Shown: positions 11,849 through 54,802, numbered from the stretch's first letter. The stretch: DNA of 64,000 nt from an uncultured bacterium (GCA_946542925.1 CAMNLA010000006.1:19512-83511); one strand, 5' to 3'. Made by a program: numbers and translations. The notes: generated from the letters alone by a model not told the origin.

Positions 11849-13873
<2,025 letters not shown>

Positions 13874-13925
13874 TAAGGTTACAACCATTATCGATATTAT
13901 ATTCATTACTAATACTTAAAACACA

Positions 13926-15281
13926 ATGAATCTATTCTTCAAAAAACTCTTCGGAAAGCTTACGAAGACGGAAAAATTCGAGAAGGAGGAAGGACGCCTG
14001 CTAGCCGCATACAAGAGGTATTGCGACGTACAGACATCAGCAGAACTAAAGGAGTACACAGAACTCTTCCACATCGTAAAATCCGCAGCATTCCAAGAGA
14101 AGAAAAAGACATTGCAAAATCGCAAATTCTCCGACACAGAAGAATATCGCGATGCTCGCAAGTACGAAAAACTTGAGAACAATGCCGACGTAAAGCAATA
14201 TTTTCAAACGTTGGTCAGTCCATCACTCAAGGAATACCTTGAATTTAAAAAGACTCCTGATTATGAAAAACTCGGGGATCCCAACATCTGGAAAACAGAT
14301 GAACGGCTGAGCCAATTCAAGGCATATGAAAAGTCGGCAGAATTTAAAAATTTCGAACGATTGAACGGCTCATATATCATCAAAGAATATGAGAAACTTC
14401 GTAATATTGTTACAACTGATGAATTCAAACAGAGAAAGGCTTTCTGGGAAAATAAAGATCGATGGAAAACCACAGAAGAGTACAAGCAGGAACAAAGATT
14501 CTATGAGCTCCAACGTACGGAAAGCATTTTATTCTATGAAAAAACAAACCCTAAAGAGTTCCAAAAACTAGACGAGTGGAAACTAACTTTTGAGGATACG
14601 TTTGATGGTAATACACTATCCAATCAATGGAGTCAAGGCAACTATCACAGAGCACAGTCTCTTAAACGAATCTACTCATTAGCAAACGAAAAACAAGCCA
14701 CCACAGATGGGTCCAACGTACAGGTAACGAACAGCACGATGAATATCAATACGTTATCTGAACGCGTTAAGGGGCTTACATGGGATCCATCAAAAGGCTT
14801 TTTCAGTAAAGAATTCGCATTTACGTCAGGCGCCGTGAATACCGGAGACTTTTTCCAACAACGTTACGGGAAAATACAGGCAAAGATTCGCATTGTAAAC
14901 AAGAAAAGTGATGTAAGCCATGCCTTTTGGCTCGGTACAGACGGAAAACTACCGCACATCAACATTTTCGCCTATAACGGAAAAGAAATCAGTGTTGGTC
15001 TCTGCACCTTACAAGGTAACGAAGTAAAAAAAGACCGCGATGTAATAAAAGGCATCTCTGCTGAGAACTATTACGTCTATACTTTGGAATGGACTCCGCA
15101 GGAAATCGTCTGGAAAGTCAACAATATTACAGTAAAGAAAGTCAAGAATAACATATCAAGCGCAATGTATTTGGCTTTCAATTCCTTCATCGGTCCAAAC
15201 AATGAAGGAGGAAATGCCACAATGCAAGTTGAGTGGGTAAAAGCATATCTCCCTAAATCCATGGTAACAATCAAACACTAA
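13926..15281 (+). CDS. GH16-fold (concanavalin-like glucanase) domain protein with a charged N-terminal repeat region; predicted non-catalytic
   Basis: The C-terminal half shows GH16 landmarks: HAFWLGTDGKLP, YYVYTLEWTPQEIVWKVNN and MYLAFNSFIGPNNEGG. The position of the EIDIME catalytic motif reads HINIFA. The N-terminal ~215 aa are K/E/Y-rich repeats (LKEYTELF, TEEYRDARKYEKL, LKEYLEFKK, IKEYEKL, TEEYKQEQRFYEL). There is no signal peptide. Confidence 0.7.
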   Translation: MNLFFKKLFGKLTKTEKFEKEEGRLLAAYKRYCDVQTSAELKEYTELFHIVKSAAFQEKKKTLQNRKFSDTEEYRDARKYEKLENNADVKQYFQTLVSPSLKEYLEFKKTPDYEKLGDPNIWKTDERLSQFKAYEKSAEFKNFERLNGSYIIKEYEKLRNIVTTDEFKQRKAFWENKDRWKTTEEYKQEQRFYELQRTESILFYEKTNPKEFQKLDEWKLTFEDTFDGNTLSNQWSQGNYHRAQSLKRIYSLANEKQATTDGSNVQVTNSTMNINTLSERVKGLTWDPSKGFFSKEFAFTSGAVNTGDFFQQRYGKIQAKIRIVNKKSDVSHAFWLGTDGKLPHINIFAYNGKEISVGLCTLQGNEVKKDRDVIKGISAENYYVYTLEWTPQEIVWKVNNITVKKVKNNISSAMYLAFNSFIGPNNEGGNATMQVEWVKAYLPKSMVTIKH

Positions 15282-15305
15282 ATTTCTGACTGAGAAGACC
15301 GAGGT

Positions 15306-15914
15306 ATGACAAACGAGGAAATCCGACAGTTACTACAGGACGAGGCGAAAGCCGTTCTTTCGCTTCCCATTACAGATCAATATCAAAAAGCTATTGATCT
15401 GATTGTAGAACAAGTCAACCATAAGGGGGGGAAACTCGTAGCGAGCGGAATGGGCAAAGCAGGACAGATAGCCATGAACATTTCCACCACTTTCAGTTCC
15501 ACCGGAACGCCTTCTGTATTTCTACACCCTAGCGAAGCCCAACATGGAGATCTTGGCCTACTTCAAAAAAACGACATACTACTTGTTGTTTCCAACTCGG
15601 GAAAGACACGTGAAATAATCGAGTTAATACAATTGGCACGTGGATTGAAACCAGATATTAAATTTATTCTGATCACAGGTAACCCGAATGGCGAATTGGT
15701 AAAAGATGCCGATGCAGTACTCCTTACCGGCAATCCTCCCGAAGTCTGTGCGTTAGGACTTGCCCCAACAACATCAACAACCATGATGACAGTCATAGGA
15801 GACATCCTTGTTGTCGGGACAATGAAACAAATTCATTTTTCTTATGAAGAGTATGCCAAACGTCACCACGGAGGGTATCTTGGGCAAAAGTCAAGGGAGA
15901 ATAGTCAGAAATAA
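15306..15914 (+). CDS. SIS-domain sugar-phosphate isomerase-like protein (KpsF/GutQ N-terminal type, no CBS pair)
   Basis: 202 aa. Motifs KLVASGMGKAGQIAMNISTTFSSTG and LLVVSNSGKTREI are typical of SIS domains. The protein ends right after the SIS fold. Confidence 0.8.
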   Translation: MTNEEIRQLLQDEAKAVLSLPITDQYQKAIDLIVEQVNHKGGKLVASGMGKAGQIAMNISTTFSSTGTPSVFLHPSEAQHGDLGLLQKNDILLVVSNSGKTREIIELIQLARGLKPDIKFILITGNPNGELVKDADAVLLTGNPPEVCALGLAPTTSTTMMTVIGDILVVGTMKQIHFSYEEYAKRHHGGYLGQKSRENSQK

Positions 15915-29382: not shown

Positions 29383-31230
29383 TTATTGGAAGTCAATATC
29401 CCATCTTTGCTCTACATCCCAATTAGCTCGTAGACGGATTGTACCGTTAAAGTTGTATACTGTCTCTGGCTGTTTCCGACTTTTCCAATCTCCCGGAGTC
29501 CAAAAACCATCACCATTATCATCAACATACAAACGAATTCGGTATTCTCCCGGATTAAGATATTCAAATAGTGTGCCATCCGATTCTGCCAGACGTTCTC
29601 GTATCACTTCCCCCTTTTTTGCATCCAACAACTGAATCCTGCATTTCGACAAATCACCTCCAAAAACTGAAACCATCAACGATGAGAACTGATCGGCTCC
29701 TTTGATGGAAAACTCTGATTCCGAACTTTTGGATGACCTACCTAGAATATCCATTGTTGCGGCAGAATCAACACGTAAAAAATATGTTTTTTCCGAGTCC
29801 CAATCTACCCTGCACTCATATGCAAGTGCAACTTTTTCTTTAGACATCGAATCAAGTAATACGGGCACTAGGATAGGCAATGGTTCCTCTACCAATGCCG
29901 TATCTTTTTTACAATACAGATGTATGTGCGACATATCAAGCGATACCATCGGAGTAGAAGAGGAAATTCGAAGCGGTTCATGAATCGACACTTCTTTACG
30001 AGGAAGTAGAAGGCTATACTGTCCCGCATTGCCAGATGGAGATGCACTCCCTTTACTCCTATGCACATGACGATAATAGGCAGACACAGTATCTGTCTGA
30101 TCCTTCAGGTGATACGCAGTATCCTTAACTACGTAAGACACAGAAAACCGAAGAGTGTCTTTCTGATACAAACCTTCATCGGTTATATAACATGTGATTG
30201 TGTCATTCCTGTTTGAATAGTGGAAAGCTATTCGCCCTGGATTTTTTTCCAAGAGATGAATTTGTGGACGGACAGAAGTAGTATCATTCATATAGAACGT
30301 AACAACATGCTCTTGTTTCCGTTCTGTTTTTATGAGATATTGTTGTTTTCTCTCTCGAATCGAAAGTAACAACACTAAGTTGTCTGGGTAATAATGTGTC
30401 CTGCTGCGGAGCACTACCGAGTCCACCACCATGGAGTCACGCAAGACGTATGCTCTGCGTGGATTACGCTTTACAGATTTGCGCATCTCTCGGCGGATTA
30501 CCGGATCTTCTGTTGCATAATGACGCAAGGTATCGCTATAGGACTCTGTTTCAAAGTAGGTTTTTACTGGCGTCGCCAAGAAAGCAAAAGGCTCGCCATC
30601 ATCTAAAATGAGATTGAAATTATTATCTGATAGGGCACACACCTGATAGTTGCCATTCTTCAGTCCGCGAAAAGTAAACCGACCAGTGGTGTCTGTCCGT
30701 GACACGTAAAGAGGGATTTGCGACATAGGAGCGTCACTCTTTCCGTCGTAAAGGACTACCGTGATGCCGTTTTGTGGTGTAAGATCAGCCCCCGATACAA
30801 CAAGACCAGAGATTTCCATCGTATCTAACTGCTCTCCTGTAGAAAAAGTGTAATGTAAGTTTTTAACAGAATTCCCTTCATTTATGTCACGAATAGCATC
30901 CGCAAAATCTATGCTGTATGTTATGTTTGATCGCAACGTATCATTAAATTCAATTCTGACTTTTCGACCCGATGCTGAGTAGGAGGGCTTTTGTTGCTGT
31001 GGGGGAGAGACAGTTATTAGGCTCTGCGGATTAGACAACTGCACATACTCATCAAATACCAATTCTATTGATTTACCCGCAAAATGCACTGAAGATGGAC
31101 TTGGAGAAGACATGACAAATTTCGGAGCACGATTGTCTCGTAATCCCCCCTGCGGTCCATTGCCTCGATTGGCACAGGACACAACCATAACGATCATAAC
31201 CAGAGAAAGGAGAATTTGTTTCAGCCGCAT
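29383..31230 (-). CDS. Ig-like (SbsA/Big_5-type) domain lipoprotein
   Basis: It has a lipoprotein-type signal (LSLVMIVMVVSCANRG). The Ig-like N-terminal domain reads DNRAPKFVMSSPSPSSVHFAGKSIELVFDEYVQL. A carboxypeptidase-regulatory-like beta-sandwich segment follows (ISGLVVSGADLTPQNGITVVLYD...GRFTFRGLKNGNYQV). Confidence 0.6.
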   Translation of the reverse strand: MRLKQILLSLVMIVMVVSCANRGNGPQGGLRDNRAPKFVMSSPSPSSVHFAGKSIELVFDEYVQLSNPQSLITVSPPQQQKPSYSASGRKVRIEFNDTLRSNITYSIDFADAIRDINEGNSVKNLHYTFSTGEQLDTMEISGLVVSGADLTPQNGITVVLYDGKSDAPMSQIPLYVSRTDTTGRFTFRGLKNGNYQVCALSDNNFNLILDDGEPFAFLATPVKTYFETESYSDTLRHYATEDPVIRREMRKSVKRNPRRAYVLRDSMVVDSVVLRSRTHYYPDNLVLLLSIRERKQQYLIKTERKQEHVVTFYMNDTTSVRPQIHLLEKNPGRIAFHYSNRNDTITCYITDEGLYQKDTLRFSVSYVVKDTAYHLKDQTDTVSAYYRHVHRSKGSASPSGNAGQYSLLLPRKEVSIHEPLRISSSTPMVSLDMSHIHLYCKKDTALVEEPLPILVPVLLDSMSKEKVALAYECRVDWDSEKTYFLRVDSAATMDILGRSSKSSESEFSIKGADQFSSLMVSVFGGDLSKCRIQLLDAKKGEVIRERLAESDGTLFEYLNPGEYRIRLYVDDNGDGFWTPGDWKSRKQPETVYNFNGTIRLRANWDVEQRWDIDFQ

Positions 31231-36692: not shown

Positions 36693-37847
36693 TTAAATAA
36701 CGAAATTCTTAACGTCTTCCTCTGTGATGACGCTTCCTCCCAATATAATCAGCCGCTCTACCACGTTGCGCAACTCTCGGATATTTCCGGACCAGGTTCG
36801 TCCCTGTAGTTTTTGAATTGCTTTTTCATCGAATTTTCTAAGCGCCACTCCCTGCTCTTCACAGATTTGAGATGCAAAATGATGGATGAGCAAGGGGATA
36901 TCTTCCTTTCTTTCGTCAAGTGACGGAACATCAATGATAATGACGCTCAAGCGATGATAGAGATCTTCTCTGAAATTTCCCTTCTCTATCTCTTCTCGCA
37001 GGTTTTTATTGGTAGCGGCTATTACACGCACGTCTATTTTAATGTCCTTGTCTGAGCCGACCGGAGAAATTACATTCTCTTGCAGACAGCGCAACACTTT
37101 GGCCTGCGCCGATAAGCTCATATCTCCTATCTCGTCAAGGAATATGGTCCCTCCGTTGGCCTGTTCGAATTTGCCGCTTCGCTGTTTGATGGCAGATGTA
37201 AAGGCTCCTTTCTCATGACCGAATAATTCGCTCTCTATCAGTTCCGATGGTATCGCGGCACAATTCACCTCCACAAACGGAGCTGACTGACGCCTGCTCA
37301 ATTGATAGATCTGACGAGCGACAACCTCTTTTCCTGTGCCGTTCGGACCGGTAATAAGAACTCGGGCCTCTGTCGGCGCAACCTTCTCTATCAAGTCCCG
37401 AACCTTTTCCAGGGCCGCCGATTTCCCTATCATCTCATATTTCTTGTCTATCTTCTTCTTCAGGACTTTGGTTTGCGTTACCAGCGACGTCTTATCCAGG
37501 GCATTGCGCATCGTGACAAGAAGACGGTTTAGGTCAATCGGTTTTTCTATGAAGTCAAACGCACCTTTCTTGATACATTCTACCGCCGTTTCTATGTTAC
37601 CATGCCCCGAGATCATCACGACAGGTACCTCATCATTCTGCTCGCGGATTTTTTCCAGCACCTCTATTCCGTCCATCTGAGGCATCTTGATGTCACTGAA
37701 TATCAAGTCATACGTCTTCTCTTTCAGTTTCTCCAATCCTGTCATGCCATCTTCCGCACTGTCCACCTCGTTCTTCTCATATTCGAGAATGTCCTTCATC
37801 GTGTTACGAATGCTCTTCTCGTCGTCAATTACCAATATTTTTGCCAT
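36693..37847 (-). CDS. Sigma-54-dependent response regulator (REC + AAA+), lacking a C-terminal HTH domain
   Basis: The receiver is canonical (ILVIDDEKS, LIFSDIKMP, VVMISGHG, FIEKP). The AAA+ domain has GPNGTGKE, GHEKGAFTSA and GGTIFLDEIGDM. The protein ends about 20 aa after RELRNVVERLIIL. Confidence 0.9.
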   Translation of the reverse strand: MAKILVIDDEKSIRNTMKDILEYEKNEVDSAEDGMTGLEKLKEKTYDLIFSDIKMPQMDGIEVLEKIREQNDEVPVVMISGHGNIETAVECIKKGAFDFIEKPIDLNRLLVTMRNALDKTSLVTQTKVLKKKIDKKYEMIGKSAALEKVRDLIEKVAPTEARVLITGPNGTGKEVVARQIYQLSRRQSAPFVEVNCAAIPSELIESELFGHEKGAFTSAIKQRSGKFEQANGGTIFLDEIGDMSLSAQAKVLRCLQENVISPVGSDKDIKIDVRVIAATNKNLREEIEKGNFREDLYHRLSVIIIDVPSLDERKEDIPLLIHHFASQICEEQGVALRKFDEKAIQKLQGRTWSGNIRELRNVVERLIILGGSVITEEDVKNFVI

Positions 37848-48747: not shown

Positions 48748-48780
48748 CGAATAATTTACCGACCAATCACCATGATTGAC

Positions 48781-49137
48781 CCTCTTTGTGCCCTCCATCT
48801 CCGTCCCACACACTCTCTGTCACCAACTCTTCCCTCCGATTATCCTTCCCTCCAACCATCCTCCTCTCCTACGCTTTGTCTCTCACAGCCTCTTCGCTGG
48901 ACCACAGGTATTCCCTCCCCCCTTTGTCTCCCTCTCCCTCTCCTGATCATCATTCATCCTCGAATCCTGCCGATCGCATCCTTTCTCTCCTCCTTGTCAT
49001 ACATCCTTCTCTCGCGCCCTCCCCTCTCTGCTCATTCTCTGAATCCCTCCTGTTCCATTTCCTCGTCCCCCCCCCCAAAAAAAACACACAGCCTCCTCCA
49101 TGCTCTTCCTGCTCTCTCTTTACCCCTTCTCTGCACT
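48781..49137 (-). repeat. Polypyrimidine (+ strand) / polypurine (- strand) tract of about 355 nt, part 2 of composite element B
   Basis: My hand count of 48781-48880 gives 7 G and 13 A in 100 nt, about 80% pyrimidine on the + strand. The pattern continues by eye to about 49137. The only ORFs are P/S/L-rich translations of the tract. Confidence 0.8.
49067..49084. repeat. Homopolymer pair C10 then A8 inside the polypyrimidine tract
   Basis: Read directly: cctcgt cccccccccc aaaaaaaa cacaca. The C run is 49067-49076 and the A run is 49077-49084. Confidence 0.9.
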
Positions 49138-49330
49138 TATAGAATAGATGATGAATAGTTGATGCATAGAGGAAGCATAGATGAAATATTGATAAGACAT
49201 AGTTAAAACATACTTAAAGCATAGATAAAACATAGATATAGTATAGATAACATATAGATAAAACATATATAAGACATACATGACTCATATATAAGGCACT
49301 GATAAAACAATATATCTCCACTATCTACCC
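49138..49330 (-). repeat. Degenerate AT-rich ATAGATA-type short repeats, part 1 of composite element B (inverted relative to element A)
   Basis: ...gcatagaggaagcatagatgaaat...gacatagttaaaacatacttaaagcatagataaaacatagatatagtatagataacatatagataaaacatatataagacataca... 49231-49246 (catagatatagtatag) is the exact reverse complement of 8533-8548. Confidence 0.8.
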
Positions 49331-50203: not shown

Positions 50204-50211
50204 TAACTTTG
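50204..50211 (+). promoter_or_regulatory. Candidate -7 promoter element (TAACTTTG) for the REC-PPDK_N gene
   Basis: Matches TAnnTTTG. It lies 50 nt upstream of the ATG at 50261. Confidence 0.35.
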
Positions 50212-50260: not shown

Positions 50261-53200
50261 ATGAAAGATACTGCCAATGGAGCACTGACACGACTGGTTG
50301 CCATTTTGAATCAGAATCTCGACCTTGACGATTTGCTTCTCAAGGCCTGCAACGAAATGGTTATCGCTGCCGGTGCCCGTGCGGGATACATCACCTTCGG
50401 AGGCAAATCCTACGAATCCAACGACTATTTTACAACCGAACACATTGTCTCCTTCCACGAATCCATTGCCGATGACCTTCTGCTCGAACTGCATCTCTTC
50501 TTCCTGTCGGCACAACAAGACAACAGCACGTCAGACATCTCACTGATGCTCCGGATCCTGACTGGCGAAGTCTCCAAAAGACGACTCTCTCTCCTCTTAC
50601 AGGACAACCGGGAACGAGTCAAGGAACTCAACGGTATTAATCAGACCGCCAGCATCATCGGAAAGGAAGTTTCCATCAGAGAAACCCTGCAGAAAATATG
50701 CAACATTATTCCCAAGTCGCTTCAGTTCCCCGACCTCGCTTGCGCACGCATTACCTATGAGGATACCTCCTACCAAAGCAAAGGATTCTGCGAAAGTGCC
50801 TGGTTCATCAGGGAAAATTTCGTTACGCTCGACGACAGGAAAGGATCCATCGAGGTTTTCTATACTCGGAAATGTCCCGATGCCGACTACGGACCGTTCC
50901 TGCGGGAAGAAATACGACTGCTTGGCAATATCGGACGACTTATTTGCGGCTATATCAACAACCACAAGGGACGTGAGGTAATGAACAAGGCCACGCGGCT
51001 CGTCGATACGAGCAAACGAGTCAACTACCGCGAGACGTATATCAAGGACCGGCAACCACTGCAACAGTTCTTCAACAAACAGATGCTCGACAAGTACATC
51101 TACTTCGACATGATGCGCTACAAGGTTAAGAACATTCTGTTTGTCGCCACGCTCTACGATGCCTACATTCTCGAAAGCGAGGACAATTTCTTCGAACAAT
51201 TCATGGGGGGAGAGATCTACCAGTTCTCGCTCTTTTCTCTGCCTCGTACCACGGCTGTAACCTCATCCGAGGAGGCGTTGGACATGCTGCGTACCATGAA
51301 GTTCGATCTCGTCATTCTGATGGCTGGACTCGACAAGAAACATCCCGTCGAACTGAGCAAGAAAATACGACGACGCTACAAGAAACTGCCCGTTTACCTG
51401 CTCGTCAACCGTAAAGACGACGTTCGCTTCTTCGAAAATCTTGTTCCCGTCAGCGATAGCATCGACAAAATGTTCGTTTGGAACGGAGAATCTCAGATTC
51501 TTTTCTCCATCGTCAAGAGCATCGAGGATCGCGCTAACGTCGAGAACGATACAACGATCGGACTCGTTCGCGTAATTCTCCTCATCGAGGACCGACCTTC
51601 CTATTATTCGAAATATTTGCAGTACCTCTATGAGATCGTCTTTGCTCAGATCGAACAGTCTCTTCGCGATGTGATGCACAACGAAATCGACAAGATAAGC
51701 CGTATGAGATCACGACCGAAGATCCTGCATGCGGCCAACTACGAGGATGCCATGTTCATCTATGAGAAATACAAGGACTTTCTCCTCTGCGTCGTTACCG
51801 ATGCGGAATTTGAACGCAACGGAACTCTTGACAAACAAGCCGGCATCAAGTTTATTCGACACGTGCAGAAACAGATGCTCTCGCTTCCGATTATCCTTCA
51901 GAGCAGCGATACGGAAAACGAAGTTCTGGCAAAACAACTTGGCGTCACTTTCATCGATAAAAACAGCGATACGATCTTCAACGACCTCCAGCGTTTCCTC
52001 ATTAGCCAACTCGGATTCGGCGACTTTGTCTTCCGTGATGCCAAGACTGGAAAACCAATTGCAGAAGCTCACACCCTGCAGGAGTTTCTCAGCATTCTCA
52101 AGTACGTGCCCGAGAAGACCATCAAGATGCACTCCGATGAGAACCAGTTCTCGCTTTGGCTCATGTCGCGTGGAGAAATTCGACTGGCTAAACGAGTAAA
52201 TCCTCTTTTATACAGCGATTTCGAGGGTGTCGAAGACTATCGGAATAAGATACTCAACCTCTTCAACGAATACGCTGAGGAAAAGAACAAGGGAAAAGTC
52301 CTGAATTTCGACGACGTTCATGAAGTAACCGAGAAGAATATCGTCAGCATGGCCGGAGGGTCTTTCGGAGGGAAAGGACGGGGTCTCGCTTTCATCAATG
52401 TGCTCATCGCTACCTCTGATTTCAGCCAATTCAGCAGCGAAATCAATATTCGTATGCCTAAGACAGTCATCATCGGTACCGATGAGTTCGACAAATTCAT
52501 GAAGGACAATGGACTCTTTGCTTTCATCGCAGATCCACATCACTCCTACGCCGACATCCGCAAGGCATTCTACGAAGCCAAACTCTCTGACTCCATCTGG
52601 ACAAAACTGGCACGTTTCCTCTCTCAGACTTCGCGGCCTCTGGCTGTACGTTCTTCCAGCATCTCCGAGGATTCCCTCTCTCAACCGTTTGCCGGGGTGT
52701 TCGACACCTATATTGTGCCGAACAACAACCCCGAAGAAAAGGAGAATCTACAACAACTCGGACATGCCATCAAACTGGTCTATGCATCAATCTATTCCAA
52801 CGAGAGCAAGCATTATTTCGACGCCATCAACCGCAACGTGGAGGAGGAAAAGATGGCTGTCGTACTGCAGGAATTGGTCGGACAGGAACACGACGGATAC
52901 TACTACCCGAATATCAGCGGAACGGCACAGTCCTATAATTACTATCCGATTGCACACATGAAACCCGAAGAAGGGTTCGCTAATGCTGCCGTTGGATTGG
53001 GATACTACGTCGTAGGAGGACAGAAGTCGTTCCGATTCTCGCCTCGGTATCCGAATATCGACATCTTCAGCACGAAGGACCTGATCAAGACGACACAAAC
53101 CGAGTTTTGTGCCCTAGACCTCAACAAACAACACATCGACTACCTGCTGAACGGCGAAGCCGCTCCGCTTGCGACCCTGCGCATTTCCGATGCCGAACGA

Positions 53201-54019
53201 CACGGAACAATCAAACACTGCGCTTCCGTTTTCAATCCCGAAAACGACAACGTCGAACCGGGACTCTCTTGCCCTGGACCACGTATCATCAATTTTGCCA
53301 ACATTCTCAAATACCACTATATCCCGCTTCCGGAATTGCTCGACGAATTGCTCGGAATAGCACAAGAAGCCATCGGAAGTCCCGTTGAAATGGAATGGGC
53401 TGTCGACCTCGAACATGCCGAAAACGGGCTTCCTTCTTTCTATCTGCTGCAAATCAAACCAATGGCTTCTGGAACGGCCATCGATGCCATTGACATTGGC
53501 AAGCCTCAGAAAGGGAAAACACTGCTCTACACCGAAAATAGCCTCGGAAACGGAATCATCAATTCCATTACTGACATCATCTATGCCGATCCCGAAAAGT
53601 TCGATAAAATGAAAACCCTTGACATGGTTAGGGAAATAGAATATCTGAACAATAAAATGGTACGCAAAAATCGACATTACGTTCTCATCGGACCGGGACG
53701 ATGGGGAACTCGCGACCGGTTTTTGGGAATTCCCGTTACTTGGCCACAGATCTCCAATGCCAGAGTCATCGTTGAAATGAGCCTCCCAGGATTCCCGCTC
53801 GACTCCTCGCTCGGAAGCCACTTTTTCCACAATGTCACATCTATGAATATCGGATATTGCTCCATCCAGGACTCTTCGCTTGTCGAGACCATCAATTGGA
53901 ACTTTATCAAAAAACAGAAGCCTTGCGAGGAAACAGAGTTCTTTAAGCATATCCAACTGAAAACTCCGCTGAAAATAAAAATGAATGGACGGGAAAGGAA
54001 AACACATATTCTCTTATAG
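50261..54019 (+). CDS. 1252-aa multidomain signalling protein: two sensor-like repeats, a degenerate receiver, a receiver domain, a PEP/pyruvate-binding (PPDK_N, ATP-grasp) domain and a ~185-aa C-terminal domain
   Basis: Residues ~40-230 hold two sensor-like repeats (ITFGGKSYESNDYF... and ITYEDTSYQSKGFCES...GSIEVFYTR...GPFLREEIRLLGNIGRLI). Residues ~288-415 are a REC-like fold without an acidic pocket (NILFVATLYD, FDLVILMAGLD, LPVYLLVN). Residues ~436-580 are a REC domain (VILLIEDRP, LLCVVTDAEF, LPIILQSSD, FIDKNS). Residues ~695-1068 are PPDK_N (GGSFGGKGRGLAF, LAVRSSSISEDSLSQPFAGVFDTY, VEMEWAVD...FYLLQIKPM). The C-terminal part reads GPGRWGTRDRFLGIPVTWPQIS...LGSHFFHN. Confidence 0.8.
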   Translation: MKDTANGALTRLVAILNQNLDLDDLLLKACNEMVIAAGARAGYITFGGKSYESNDYFTTEHIVSFHESIADDLLLELHLFFLSAQQDNSTSDISLMLRILTGEVSKRRLSLLLQDNRERVKELNGINQTASIIGKEVSIRETLQKICNIIPKSLQFPDLACARITYEDTSYQSKGFCESAWFIRENFVTLDDRKGSIEVFYTRKCPDADYGPFLREEIRLLGNIGRLICGYINNHKGREVMNKATRLVDTSKRVNYRETYIKDRQPLQQFFNKQMLDKYIYFDMMRYKVKNILFVATLYDAYILESEDNFFEQFMGGEIYQFSLFSLPRTTAVTSSEEALDMLRTMKFDLVILMAGLDKKHPVELSKKIRRRYKKLPVYLLVNRKDDVRFFENLVPVSDSIDKMFVWNGESQILFSIVKSIEDRANVENDTTIGLVRVILLIEDRPSYYSKYLQYLYEIVFAQIEQSLRDVMHNEIDKISRMRSRPKILHAANYEDAMFIYEKYKDFLLCVVTDAEFERNGTLDKQAGIKFIRHVQKQMLSLPIILQSSDTENEVLAKQLGVTFIDKNSDTIFNDLQRFLISQLGFGDFVFRDAKTGKPIAEAHTLQEFLSILKYVPEKTIKMHSDENQFSLWLMSRGEIRLAKRVNPLLYSDFEGVEDYRNKILNLFNEYAEEKNKGKVLNFDDVHEVTEKNIVSMAGGSFGGKGRGLAFINVLIATSDFSQFSSEINIRMPKTVIIGTDEFDKFMKDNGLFAFIADPHHSYADIRKAFYEAKLSDSIWTKLARFLSQTSRPLAVRSSSISEDSLSQPFAGVFDTYIVPNNNPEEKENLQQLGHAIKLVYASIYSNESKHYFDAINRNVEEEKMAVVLQELVGQEHDGYYYPNISGTAQSYNYYPIAHMKPEEGFANAAVGLGYYVVGGQKSFRFSPRYPNIDIFSTKDLIKTTQTEFCALDLNKQHIDYLLNGEAAPLATLRISDAERHGTIKHCASVFNPENDNVEPGLSCPGPRIINFANILKYHYIPLPELLDELLGIAQEAIGSPVEMEWAVDLEHAENGLPSFYLLQIKPMASGTAIDAIDIGKPQKGKTLLYTENSLGNGIINSITDIIYADPEKFDKMKTLDMVREIEYLNNKMVRKNRHYVLIGPGRWGTRDRFLGIPVTWPQISNARVIVEMSLPGFPLDSSLGSHFFHNVTSMNIGYCSIQDSSLVETINWNFIKKQKPCEETEFFKHIQLKTPLKIKMNGRERKTHILL

Positions 54020-54073
54020 ACAGACTAATCCTCCCTATTCATCAGATAAAATACGAAATAATGACAGGACAAT

Positions 54074-54727
54074 ATGATAACGATAGGTGTCTTTGATAAA
54101 CAGAAAGTAATGCGAGAAGCGATCTGCTCGCTCTTGGCCACGAACGAGGAATTCCTGCCGAAAGCAGTAACTCCGGAAACGGAAGATCTACTCGCCGAGG
54201 TAGGGAATGAGGGGTTCAACATCCTGCTTTTCAATATCTATACCCCACAGTTTGAGGAAATGAGGTTTATTTCTCAAATTCATTCCACCTGTCCTAGGAC
54301 ACGAGTCCTCGTCCTCTCGCAGAACAACGAAGAGGAACTGATTCTGAAAACCATTAAGGCAGGAGCAAAAGGATTCCTCGATGCCAATGCCGGGAAAAAC
54401 GAACTGTTTGAAGCCATCTACACCCTTCGCGGAGGATACGATTTCTACAGCGAAAGCATCACGCACATGCTCCTCGGAAAATACCTCAAGAAGATTAAAA
54501 ACAAAGAAACGGTCGAAGCTCCTGGCGTCGAAGCTCTTAGCCAGCGACAGATTGAAATCATCCGAATGTGGGGTAACAACATGAGCAACAAGGAAATCGC
54601 CGATAAACTTTTCATCTCTGTACGAACCGTCGAAAGCCACAAGAACCACATCATGCAACGGCTCAATCTCAAGACGAATATTGACATGATTAAATTCGGC
54701 ATACGCAACAATCTGATCGATATTTGA
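54074..54727 (+). CDS. LuxR/GerE-family (NarL-type) regulator with an atypical receiver lacking the phospho-acceptor Asp
   Basis: The C-terminal GerE HTH reads LSQRQIEIIRMWGNNMSNKEIADKLFISVRTVESHKNHIMQRL. In the receiver, TIGVFDKQ replaces the DD pocket and FNILLFNIYTP sits where DxxxxD-MP is expected, with no Asp. LVLSQN is retained, and GFLDAN sits where the conserved Lys is expected. Confidence 0.85.
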   Translation: MITIGVFDKQKVMREAICSLLATNEEFLPKAVTPETEDLLAEVGNEGFNILLFNIYTPQFEEMRFISQIHSTCPRTRVLVLSQNNEEELILKTIKAGAKGFLDANAGKNELFEAIYTLRGGYDFYSESITHMLLGKYLKKIKNKETVEAPGVEALSQRQIEIIRMWGNNMSNKEIADKLFISVRTVESHKNHIMQRLNLKTNIDMIKFGIRNNLIDI

Positions 54728-54745
54728 ATCCCACTCTTCTATAAT

Positions 54746-54783
54746 AAAGGAAAAGGACAGCTGCTGTGCTGTCCTTTTCCTTT
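54746..54783. terminator. Strong bidirectional terminator-like hairpin between the LuxR gene and ruvB
   Basis: Perfect 16-bp stem, aaaggaaaaggacagc (54746-54761) with gctgtccttttccttt (54768-54783), around a 6-nt loop. Confidence 0.7.
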
Positions 54784-54802
54784 ATTCATCCCCCTCCTTC
54801 GG

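Follow-up and report, generated by a model that had tools for sequence, protein, structure and literature searches.

An ATP-grasp domain is common to phosphoenolpyruvate (PEP) synthase, pyruvate phosphate dikinase (PPDK) and rifampin phosphotransferase (RPH), and the subject of this report is a pair of genes in which a domain of this type is preceded by receivers and sensor-like repeats and is accompanied by a LuxR-type regulator. The pair lies in a 64,000-nucleotide (nt) stretch of DNA from an uncultured bacterium (GCA_946542925.1, CAMNLA010000006.1:19512-83511), which we call the window and whose positions are counted from its first letter. It belongs to a family that is recurrently linked to gdhA, the gene for glutamate dehydrogenase (GDH). 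The two open reading frames (ORFs) lie on the same strand, separated by a spacer of 54 nt, and were found where the original prediction, made from the sequence of the window, had placed them:

50261-54019, plus strand: gene 1, ORF for a multidomain signalling enzyme of 1252 amino acids (aa)
54074-54727, plus strand: gene 2, ORF for a 217-aa NarL/LuxR-type regulator with an Asp-less receiver

With PEP synthase, PPDK and RPH, the protein of gene 1 shares the Lys, Arg, Thr and Glu/Gln residues for nucleotide and Mg, and as in RPH a conserved His is found in a C-terminal domain that follows a flexible linker. It differs from the dikinases in having no detectable PEP-utilizers swivel, PEP/pyruvate TIM barrel or rifampin (RIF)-binding domain, and in carrying two receivers and GAF-like repeats in front of its ATP-grasp, which the dikinases do not have. 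The closest functional precedent is VadK (Rv1127c) of Mycobacterium tuberculosis, a protein of about 490 aa that is likewise a PPDK relative without a pyruvate/PEP domain and a metabolic regulator rather than an enzyme of central metabolism. This truncated PPDK relative, with a mass of about 50.5 kDa, is a regulator of the methylcitrate cycle and undergoes ATP- and Mg-dependent autophosphorylation on His422 (PMC13400623). Unlike the protein of gene 1, VadK has a recognisable phospho-transfer His domain (that of His422), it has no receiver, GAF domains or LuxR partner, and it is tied to the methylcitrate cycle rather than to gdhA. The best sequence-level match in the PDB is HpeI (9goj), with which the motifs VRSSS..ED..FAG..TY and EW..LLQ.RP were aligned; HpeI is the ATP-grasp chain of a 'two-component kinase' that is reported to start aromatic-ketone catabolism (PMC12167813). 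With its 387 aa, the crystallised HpeI chain leaves no room for receiver and sensor domains such as those of gene 1. The Desulfovibrio proteins Dde_0603/0604, a response regulator beside a PPDK-like protein (PMC4001038), were rejected as a parallel, since their architecture is different and includes a PEP-utilizers mobile domain.

Fusions of receivers (REC) with PPDK-type domains have also been listed in censuses. A census passage calls the REC-PPDK fusion a 'Bacteroides-like combination' (PMC5847659), and a passage in another source counts PPDK as one of the effector domains found in association with Asp-less receivers (PMC4395418). Gene 1, with its receivers fused N-terminally to a PPDK-type domain, belongs to the class as these passages describe it, and the association with Asp-less receivers fits its receiver 1. 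The passages treat the domain combination alone and mention neither gdhA linkage nor a LuxR partner, GAF-like repeats or a C-terminal His domain. Tandem receivers, one phosphorylatable and one an adaptor, in front of an enzymatic domain are likewise the arrangement of PleD; in gene 1, however, the pseudo-receiver comes first and an ATP-grasp takes the place of the GGDEF cyclase as output. The REC-PPDK fusion is thus already catalogued, as an uncharacterised family of which the window locus is a derived member. As far as our literature search went, what is unreported is the gdhA linkage, the Asp-less LuxR partner, the operator-like element described below and the His-bearing C-terminal domain. 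The search returned no characterisation of REC-PPDK proteins, in agreement with the original prediction, which knew of no experimental work on this architecture; it returned no paper that connects a PPDK-like protein with GDH, and DUF5752, the family to which the linker of gene 1 has a weak match, was not mentioned in any paper found. The gdhA linkage, its loss in the window lineage and the prior census listing of the fusion had not been seen by the original prediction.

The core of the gene 1 protein (residues 266-1252, about 990 aa) consists of a pseudo-receiver, a receiver, a helical linker, the PPDK_N ATP-grasp and the C-terminal His-bearing domain. A search with the core returned 926 cluster representatives (50% identity, E<=1e-30), most of them stand-alone proteins of 970-1010 aa, and the family is found in Marinimicrobia, Gemmatimonadota and many unassigned metagenome contigs. 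We fetched 103 loci and took a census of the neighbouring genes in the 99 that were not duplicates. A GDH gene lies within 2.5 kb in 49 of these 99 loci, and in 30 of the 51 whose sequence extends 1.8 kb or more to each side, while we estimate that chance would bring one given gene to within 2.5 kb in well under 1% of loci. The linked gene encodes an NADP-specific GDH (NCBIfam, 772 bits), and the linkage was seen in Bacteroidales, Marinimicrobia and Gemmatimonadota metagenome-assembled genomes (MAGs) as well as in many unassigned metagenome contigs. Its orientation varies, the GDH gene being downstream on the same strand in 22 loci, downstream and convergent in 6, upstream and divergent in 10, upstream on the same strand in 8 and between paralogues in 3. 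Next in frequency among the recurrent neighbours are a GltD/gltA-type NADPH-dependent glutamate synthase (10 loci), a PyrK-like FAD/NAD partner (7 loci) and the alpha and beta subunits of a 2-oxoacid:acceptor oxidoreductase (7 and 8 loci, respectively); examples of these neighbours are L007:3116-4606, L033:9080-9904, L035:3397-4419 and L032:1599-3443. The recurrent neighbours all act at the 2-oxoglutarate/glutamate node. Because gdhA and these metabolic neighbours recur, the family is likely tied to the 2-oxoglutarate/glutamate/NADPH node, and most likely it reports or controls this node and thereby carbon/nitrogen balance.

Within this family the Bacteroidales loci stand out by the presence of a gene 2 orthologue, which is directly 3' of the big gene in 19 of the fetched loci; in a further 4, which belong to a one-repeat clade, it lies upstream in divergent orientation. 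The pairing is strict: in the multi-repeat clade, every locus from Bacteroidales, Prolixibacteraceae or Paludibacteraceae whose sequence leaves room to see it has the LuxR gene directly 3' of the big gene, so the synteny on which the original prediction depended holds in loci of this type. In the ancestral Bacteroidales order the big gene is followed by the LuxR gene and then by gdhA (L005-L010, L012-L014, L017, L020, L024 and L102). At one of these loci, L020, two GDH paralogues of 63% identity occur within 13 kb (1-829 and 13414-14763), and just one of them lies directly behind the LuxR gene; the module therefore appears to be tied to a specific GDH isoenzyme. The best explanation of the distribution is that in Bacteroidales the core gained 2 to 5 N-terminal GAF-like ligand-sensing repeats and a dedicated LuxR partner.

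The spacer between the LuxR gene and gdhA contains a further conserved feature. The 17-bp pattern TMMGTRWWWYACKKAAW occurs exactly once in each of 15 loci, on the plus strand and always in this spacer, and nowhere else in the 103 fetched loci. The carriers listed are L005-L014, L017, L020, L024 and L102 (for example at L006:11269-11285 and L102:10924-10940). The element is partly palindromic (for example ACGTGATTCACGT) and sits 5' of a TATTTTAG-like -7 motif and of gdhA, and it is a candidate operator-like element for gdhA.

The window lineage (P0001-P0003 and L103) has a RuvB gene after the LuxR gene. This lineage has lost gdhA and the 17-bp element from the locus, and the pair in the window is a derived copy with two sensor repeats. 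Since neither gdhA nor the element is any longer at the locus, the target in this lineage would be either unlinked or changed. Gene 1 is a real gene, with 934 homologues at E<=1e-5. An identical protein is present on three metagenome scaffolds, on which the neighbours are also the same (a YgjP-like gene 5' and RuvB 3'), and its nearest named relative, at 64% identity, comes from a Paludibacteraceae MAG from yak rectum.

AlphaFold2 (AF2) models of gene 1 were built on family alignments in two halves, residues 1-620 and 590-1252, and together with Pfam, hhalign and Foldseek they bear out the five-part architecture that had been proposed for this protein. The N-terminal half comprises, in order, two small GAF-like repeats joined by long helices and then two receivers (AF2 and Foldseek):

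50270-50575, plus strand: GAF-like sensor repeat 1 (residues 4-105), which has diverged more than repeat 2; composed in the AF2 model of two helices, four strands and one long helix
50606-50992, plus strand: GAF-like sensor repeat 2 (residues 116-244), with leading helix NRERVKELNGINQT and closing helix FLREEIRLLGNIGRLI
51122-51556, plus strand: receiver 1 (residues 288-432), a pseudo-receiver in which the acceptor position is taken by Met354
51566-52015, plus strand: receiver 2 (residues 436-585), with Glu443, Asp444, Asp514, Ser548 and Lys567 and a helical insertion after beta-1
51800-51802, plus strand: codon of Asp514, the predicted phospho-acceptor of receiver 2 (hhalign, conservation)

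The model of this half (predicted local distance difference test, pLDDT, 88.8) resembles tandem GAF domains (PDE6 and the GAF-PHY of phytochromes) in Foldseek with E values of about 1e-6 to 1e-4 and low template modelling (TM) scores, and the N-terminal repeats, of about 100-130 aa each, have no Pfam GAF or PAS match. The two repeats are weakly similar to each other (21% identity, E=0.003) and have the same order of secondary structure elements. They are tandem sensor-like repeats as had been claimed, and the claim that both end in the same closing helix has to be corrected, because FLREEIRLL is found in the second repeat alone. Homologues have between 2 and 5 copies of a sensor repeat unit of about 135 aa, with total lengths of 1252, 1399, about 1530 and 1657 aa.

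The succession of a degenerate receiver and a complete one, also part of the original prediction, was upheld by hhalign. Receiver 1 is marginal in Pfam (Response_reg at 330-388, 30.1 bits against a cut-off of 30.2); its alignment with canonical receivers reaches 97% probability in hhalign and places Met354 opposite Asp57 of CheY, and in 56 of 72 homologues the residue in this column is Met. As Met354 replaces the acceptor Asp while the receiver fold is supported at 97% probability, receiver 1 is a pseudo-receiver. Receiver 2 was missed by Pfam because of its helical insertion. It was recognised by hhalign (94% probability, E=1e-7), which aligned Asp514, Ser548 and Lys567 with Asp57, Thr87 and Lys109 of CheY; its topology in the AF2 model is (beta-alpha)5, and the model of the N-terminal half matches the tandem receivers of PleD in Foldseek (E=4e-7). 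Its landmark residues are highly conserved among the 72 homologues: Glu443 in 71, Asp444 in 65, Asp514 in 68, Ser548 in all 72 and Lys567 in 71.

The C-terminal half was modelled with a pLDDT of 93 and a predicted TM score (pTM) of 0.90, and comprises the following features:

52028-52330, plus strand: helical linker domain (residues 590-690), a weak DUF5752 match; a small beta-hairpin and then five helices in the AF2 model
52364-53470, plus strand: PPDK_N-type ATP-grasp (residues 702-1070), from Pfam, AF2 and Foldseek
53513-54016, plus strand: C-terminal alpha/beta domain (residues 1085-1252), after a lower-confidence linker, with the motifs GPGRWG(T/S)xD, LGIPVxW and G(S/T)HFFxN
53819-53821, plus strand: codon of His1187, a putative phospho-carrier or catalytic residue

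The linker matches Pfam PF19027 (DUF5752) over residues 603-682 with 21.2 bits against a cut-off of 23, and many homologues carry a precomputed PF19027 annotation. PPDK_N is the sole clear Pfam domain in gene 1, and it is significant, as had been claimed: the match has E=2.7e-36 and a score of 125.9 bits (cut-off 27) and spans profile positions 4-311 of 328. A loss of the ATP-binding residues would have spoken against the assignment, and they are kept. The key residues are Lys705 (GGKGRG), Arg797 (VRSSS), Thr816 (FDTY), Glu1043, Glu1045, Gln1064 and Lys1066. With Thr816 excluded from the count and position 1066 taken as Lys/Arg, these are conserved in 84-89 of 89 homologues (Lys705 in 88, Arg797 in 89, Glu1045 in 88 and Gln1064 in 88). 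A family profile aligned Arg797 and Thr816 with Arg117 and Thr136 of RPH, which mutagenesis of RPH has shown to be important. In Foldseek the C-terminal half is matched by rifampin phosphotransferase (5hv1, 1.9e-13) and HpeI (6.6e-11), and also by PEP synthase (2ols) and PPDK (1kbl).

The three motifs of the C-terminal domain are near-invariant in the family. Position 1187 is His in 86 of 89 homologues and Gly1185 is present in all 89; two of the three homologues without the His have lost ATP-grasp residues as well, a joint loss that weakly suggests cooperation between the His and the ATP site. In the AF2 model His1187 opens a helix (model residues 598-605), and a position at the N-terminus of a helix is typical of phospho-carrier histidines such as those of HPr, Enzyme I and PPDK. 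That His1187 may be such a phospho-carrier is our guess. The domain has no Pfam match and, within the model of the whole C-terminal half, no separate significant Foldseek match, and searches of the PDB with phmmer and a domain profile gave no match to it, the profile also recovering no dikinase. Its identification as a PEP-utilizers swivel was tried and rejected, as hhalign against four swivel domains (sequences taken from PDB alignments) gave less than 1% probability, and a family profile alignment that reached the start of the RPH swivel domain scored a sub-threshold -3.2 bits, which has no evidential value. No PEP-utilizers_C TIM barrel or RIF-binding-type second substrate domain was matched in gene 1 by Pfam or NCBIfam, and the NCBIfam matches cover only the first 180-230 positions of models of 780-930 positions. 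Since the swivel tests were all negative, we class the protein as a member of the PPDK_N superfamily and do not file it as a canonical dikinase.

Gene 2 matches Response_reg (40.8 bits) and GerE (59.7 bits) in Pfam, while its NCBIfam matches to MctR, FimZ, UvrY and NarL all remain far below their cut-offs. Its two landmarks are:

54233-54235, plus strand: codon of Asn54, at the phospho-acceptor position, aligned with Asp59 of NarL
54533-54691, plus strand: GerE/LuxR helix-turn-helix (residues 154-206; PF00196, E=2.2e-16)

That the receiver of this regulator has no Asp to phosphorylate, as had been read from the sequence, was substantiated by an alignment with NarL, UhpA and CheY, in which Asn54 is at the acceptor position; the acceptor Asp is found in 0 of the 23 gene 2 orthologues from the fetched loci. 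The absence of this residue makes gene 2 an Asp-less receiver (ALR) regulator rather than a canonical response regulator, and the activity of ALR regulators is governed by mechanisms that do not involve phosphorylation of an Asp. Like gene 2, RitR has an Asn (Asn53) at this position, according to the passage concerned in PMC4395418, although RitR is OmpR-type and gene 2 is of the NarL/LuxR (GerE) class with a PPDK_N enzyme as its fixed partner. Gene 2 of the window also has Ala where NarL has Lys109. This Lys has been replaced by Ala or Ser in the LuxR partners of the clade of the window and in that of L004, and is kept in most orthologues; the clade that has lost it is the one with two sensor repeats, in which gdhA is not adjacent in the window or in L103 and the contig of L004 is too short to show it.

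Two tandem paralogues of the big gene are found at L023, L025, L026, L028, L030, L038, L045, L062-L064 and L091, and thus in many genomes; often the first copy bears one GAF-like repeat and the second consists of the core alone. The idea that one copy in such pairs is dead was discarded, the ATP-grasp residues and His1187 being kept in both, and in L062-L064 the second paralogue has Asn at the acceptor position of receiver 2. These pairs suggest that hetero-oligomers are formed.

The best explanation of the pair itself is that genes 1 and 2 form a two-gene operon encoding a cytoplasmic signalling module of an uncharacterised family. Its anatomy, the conservation of its residues, the synteny, the gdhA linkage and the conserved element are observations; as to its working, we tentatively favour, at somewhat less than even confidence, a module that signals carbon/nitrogen status. 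We infer its steps as follows. A metabolite would bind the GAF-like repeats, and Asp514 of receiver 2 would be phosphorylated by an unlinked histidine kinase or a small phosphodonor. The repeats and receiver 2 would together gate the ATP-grasp, which would spend ATP on loading His1187 of the C-terminal domain, itself attached by a flexible linker. The LuxR partner would receive the resulting state through phosphotransfer to a residue other than Asp or through docking of receiver to receiver, and would then act at TMMGTRWWWYACKKAAW 5' of gdhA in the ancestral loci and at an unlinked target in the window lineage.

Several observations weigh against this proposal. There is no gdhA in the 64-kb window, and TMMGTRWWWYACKKAAW is not found there at <=1 mismatch; at 2 mismatches three matches appear, all in coding regions and at chance level. 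The evidence for the element is partly circular, since the pattern was derived from 13 of the 15 matching loci, and its independent part consists of the match in L011 and of the absence of the pattern elsewhere. A LuxR partner is present in only 23 of about 99 loci. Because most lineages carry the core without it, the LuxR protein is not the general substrate or ancestral target of the family, which argues that it is a Bacteroidales add-on, and the earlier suggestion that it is the substrate of the kinase fails if taken family-wide. About 9 of 88 homologues have lost the acceptor Asp of receiver 2 yet keep Lys705 and His1187. Finally, the PF00391 PEP-utilizers swivel domain was not found in gene 1 by Pfam at E<=1. 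This last result also bears on the original view of a PPDK_N module standing in the place of HisKA/HATPase, which is not supported, as does the fact that receiver 2 keeps every residue needed to accept phosphate from an ordinary unlinked histidine kinase. The accompanying statement that the window encodes no histidine kinase agrees with our scans, in which none was found among the 20 largest ORFs of positions 1-40000 or among the genes called from about 40261 to 64000, GyrB being the only HATPase_c match in the scanned ORFs; nor were histidine-kinase domains found in gene 1 (Pfam) or among the recurrent neighbours in about 95 loci.

The alternatives differ in what the ATP-grasp is taken to act on. 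The enzyme could be a metabolic kinase under receiver control, with receiver 2 phosphorylated by an unlinked histidine kinase and the ATP-grasp and C-terminal domain phosphorylating a metabolite of the glutamate/2-oxoglutarate node; the LuxR protein would then be a separate co-transcribed regulator, possibly sensing the product through its pseudo-receiver. We regard this as rather doubtful. It agrees with the fully canonical receiver 2, with the occurrence of the core without a LuxR partner in most lineages, with neighbours that are metabolic enzymes (GDH, GltD-type and 2-oxoacid oxidoreductase) and with the small-molecule substrates of the characterised PPDK_N enzymes that match our model (RPH, PEP synthase, PPDK and HpeI), and the census passage on the fusion files it as a response regulator with enzymatic output (PMC5847659). 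Against it, the second substrate-binding domain that such an enzyme would use, of the PEP-utilizers_C TIM barrel or RIF-binding type, is not recognisable by Pfam, the C-terminal domain has just about 170 aa, and the homologues without the receiver 2 Asp, about 10%, keep their catalytic residues. The enzyme could instead be a protein kinase acting on GDH, which it would phosphorylate or bind and so switch in activity, the LuxR protein being a transcriptional add-on of Bacteroidales. The action of AceK on isocitrate dehydrogenase would be a parallel, and GDH of Bacteroides fragilis was reportedly found in the 1980s to be reversibly inactivated in vivo, a report that our literature search did not return. 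That gdhA adjoins the core gene even where the transcription factor is missing, and in all four orientations, speaks for such an arrangement, as does VadK, which interacts with methylcitrate-cycle enzymes and tunes flux (PMC13400623). We nevertheless consider it unlikely, for the divergent orientation is more typical of a transcription regulator than of an enzyme and its substrate, and the window lineage keeps the pair without a linked gdhA.

Two further explanations dispense with an external substrate. In one, the ATP-grasp is non-catalytic and binds ATP or AMP so as to sense the energy charge, the protein serving as a nucleotide sensor or scaffold that signals to the LuxR partner by conformational changes from receiver to receiver. 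The undetected swivel domain, the pseudo-receivers in both proteins and the frequency of tandem paralogue pairs, with the hetero-oligomers they suggest, are compatible with this; Lys705, Arg797, Glu1045, Gln1064 and His1187, however, are near-invariant across proteins that are 31-40% identical, and such near-invariance of catalytic-type residues and of His1187 points to chemistry and not just binding, so that we judge a purely non-catalytic role very unlikely. In the other, the ATP-grasp phosphorylates Asp514 of its own chain, directly or via His1187, which would make the protein a self-contained phosphorelay without a histidine kinase and a new type of receiver kinase. Classical ATP-grasp enzymes make acyl-phosphates from carboxylates, and phospho-Asp is an acyl-phosphate; moreover, receiver 2 and the ATP-grasp are always in one chain, and a histidine kinase is neither among the conserved neighbours nor in the window. 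The known PPDK_N enzymes, on the other hand, attack ATP with a His rather than a carboxylate, it is common for unlinked kinases to serve orphan receivers, and the homologues that have lost Asp514 and kept Lys705 and His1187 argue that Asp514 is not an obligate step. We hold this relay to be highly improbable. The boldest form of the signalling proposal is that the ATP-grasp and the His1187 domain are an unrecognised type of signalling kinase without HisKA/HATPase, which autophosphorylates, feeds a dedicated circuit with Asp514, the Asp-less LuxR protein or GDH as acceptor, and controls GDH across the lineages of the family (Bacteroidales, Marinimicrobia, Gemmatimonadota and others); we consider it quite unlikely.

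Bacteroidota are not known to apply classical NtrBC/PII logic to gdhA, and the control of GDH in them is poorly understood. A large uncharacterised enzyme family (the 926 clusters) is now linked to gdhA across phyla, and this linkage gives the pair a likely physiological role. The Bacteroidales version, with its dedicated transcription factor and operator-like element, provides a testable candidate for GDH control. Should it be true that the ATP-grasp signals through a phospho-His without a classical histidine kinase, the protein would represent a new type of bacterial kinase beside VadK.

The flanks of the pair contain two features that bear on its transcription:

50204-50211, plus strand: TAACTTTG, putative -7 promoter motif read from the sequence, ending 49 nt 5' of the ATG of gene 1
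54743-54761 / 54768-54786, no strand assigned: perfect inverted repeat of 19 bp with a loop of 6 nt, in the gap between gene 2 and RuvB, which is convergent to it

The motif is where it had been predicted and would be the promoter motif of gene 1 by its fit to the Bacteroidota -7 consensus, TAnnTTTG. The hairpin had been described as 16 bp long at 54746-54783 and is in fact a perfect 19-bp repeat at 54743-54786. It is likely a bidirectional terminator; it was not among the sites given by a consensus terminator scan, and its stem is not followed by a run of T. No terminator-like site was found in the spacer between the two genes, and for this reason they are probably transcribed together.

Elsewhere in the window, Rfam and tRNA scans found no RNA genes. 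Between a DHH-family gene and the YgjP-like gene (48780-49278) there is a strongly C+T-rich stretch of about 330 nt, including a C8A8 run, and after it, at 49142-49278, an array of about 8 copies of an 11-nt CATAGATAAAA-like unit, which has no Rfam match. On its minus strand the window has genes for a protein of 384 aa in which receiver and sigma-54 activator domains, but no DNA-binding domain, were detected (36693-37847) and for a Big_5 protein of 615 aa (29383-31230). A similar pair, of 383 aa (12482-13633) and 610 aa (13655-15487), is present in L102 directly 3' of the gdhA that lies behind the big gene and the LuxR gene, and the two pairs may be the remnant of a common synteny.

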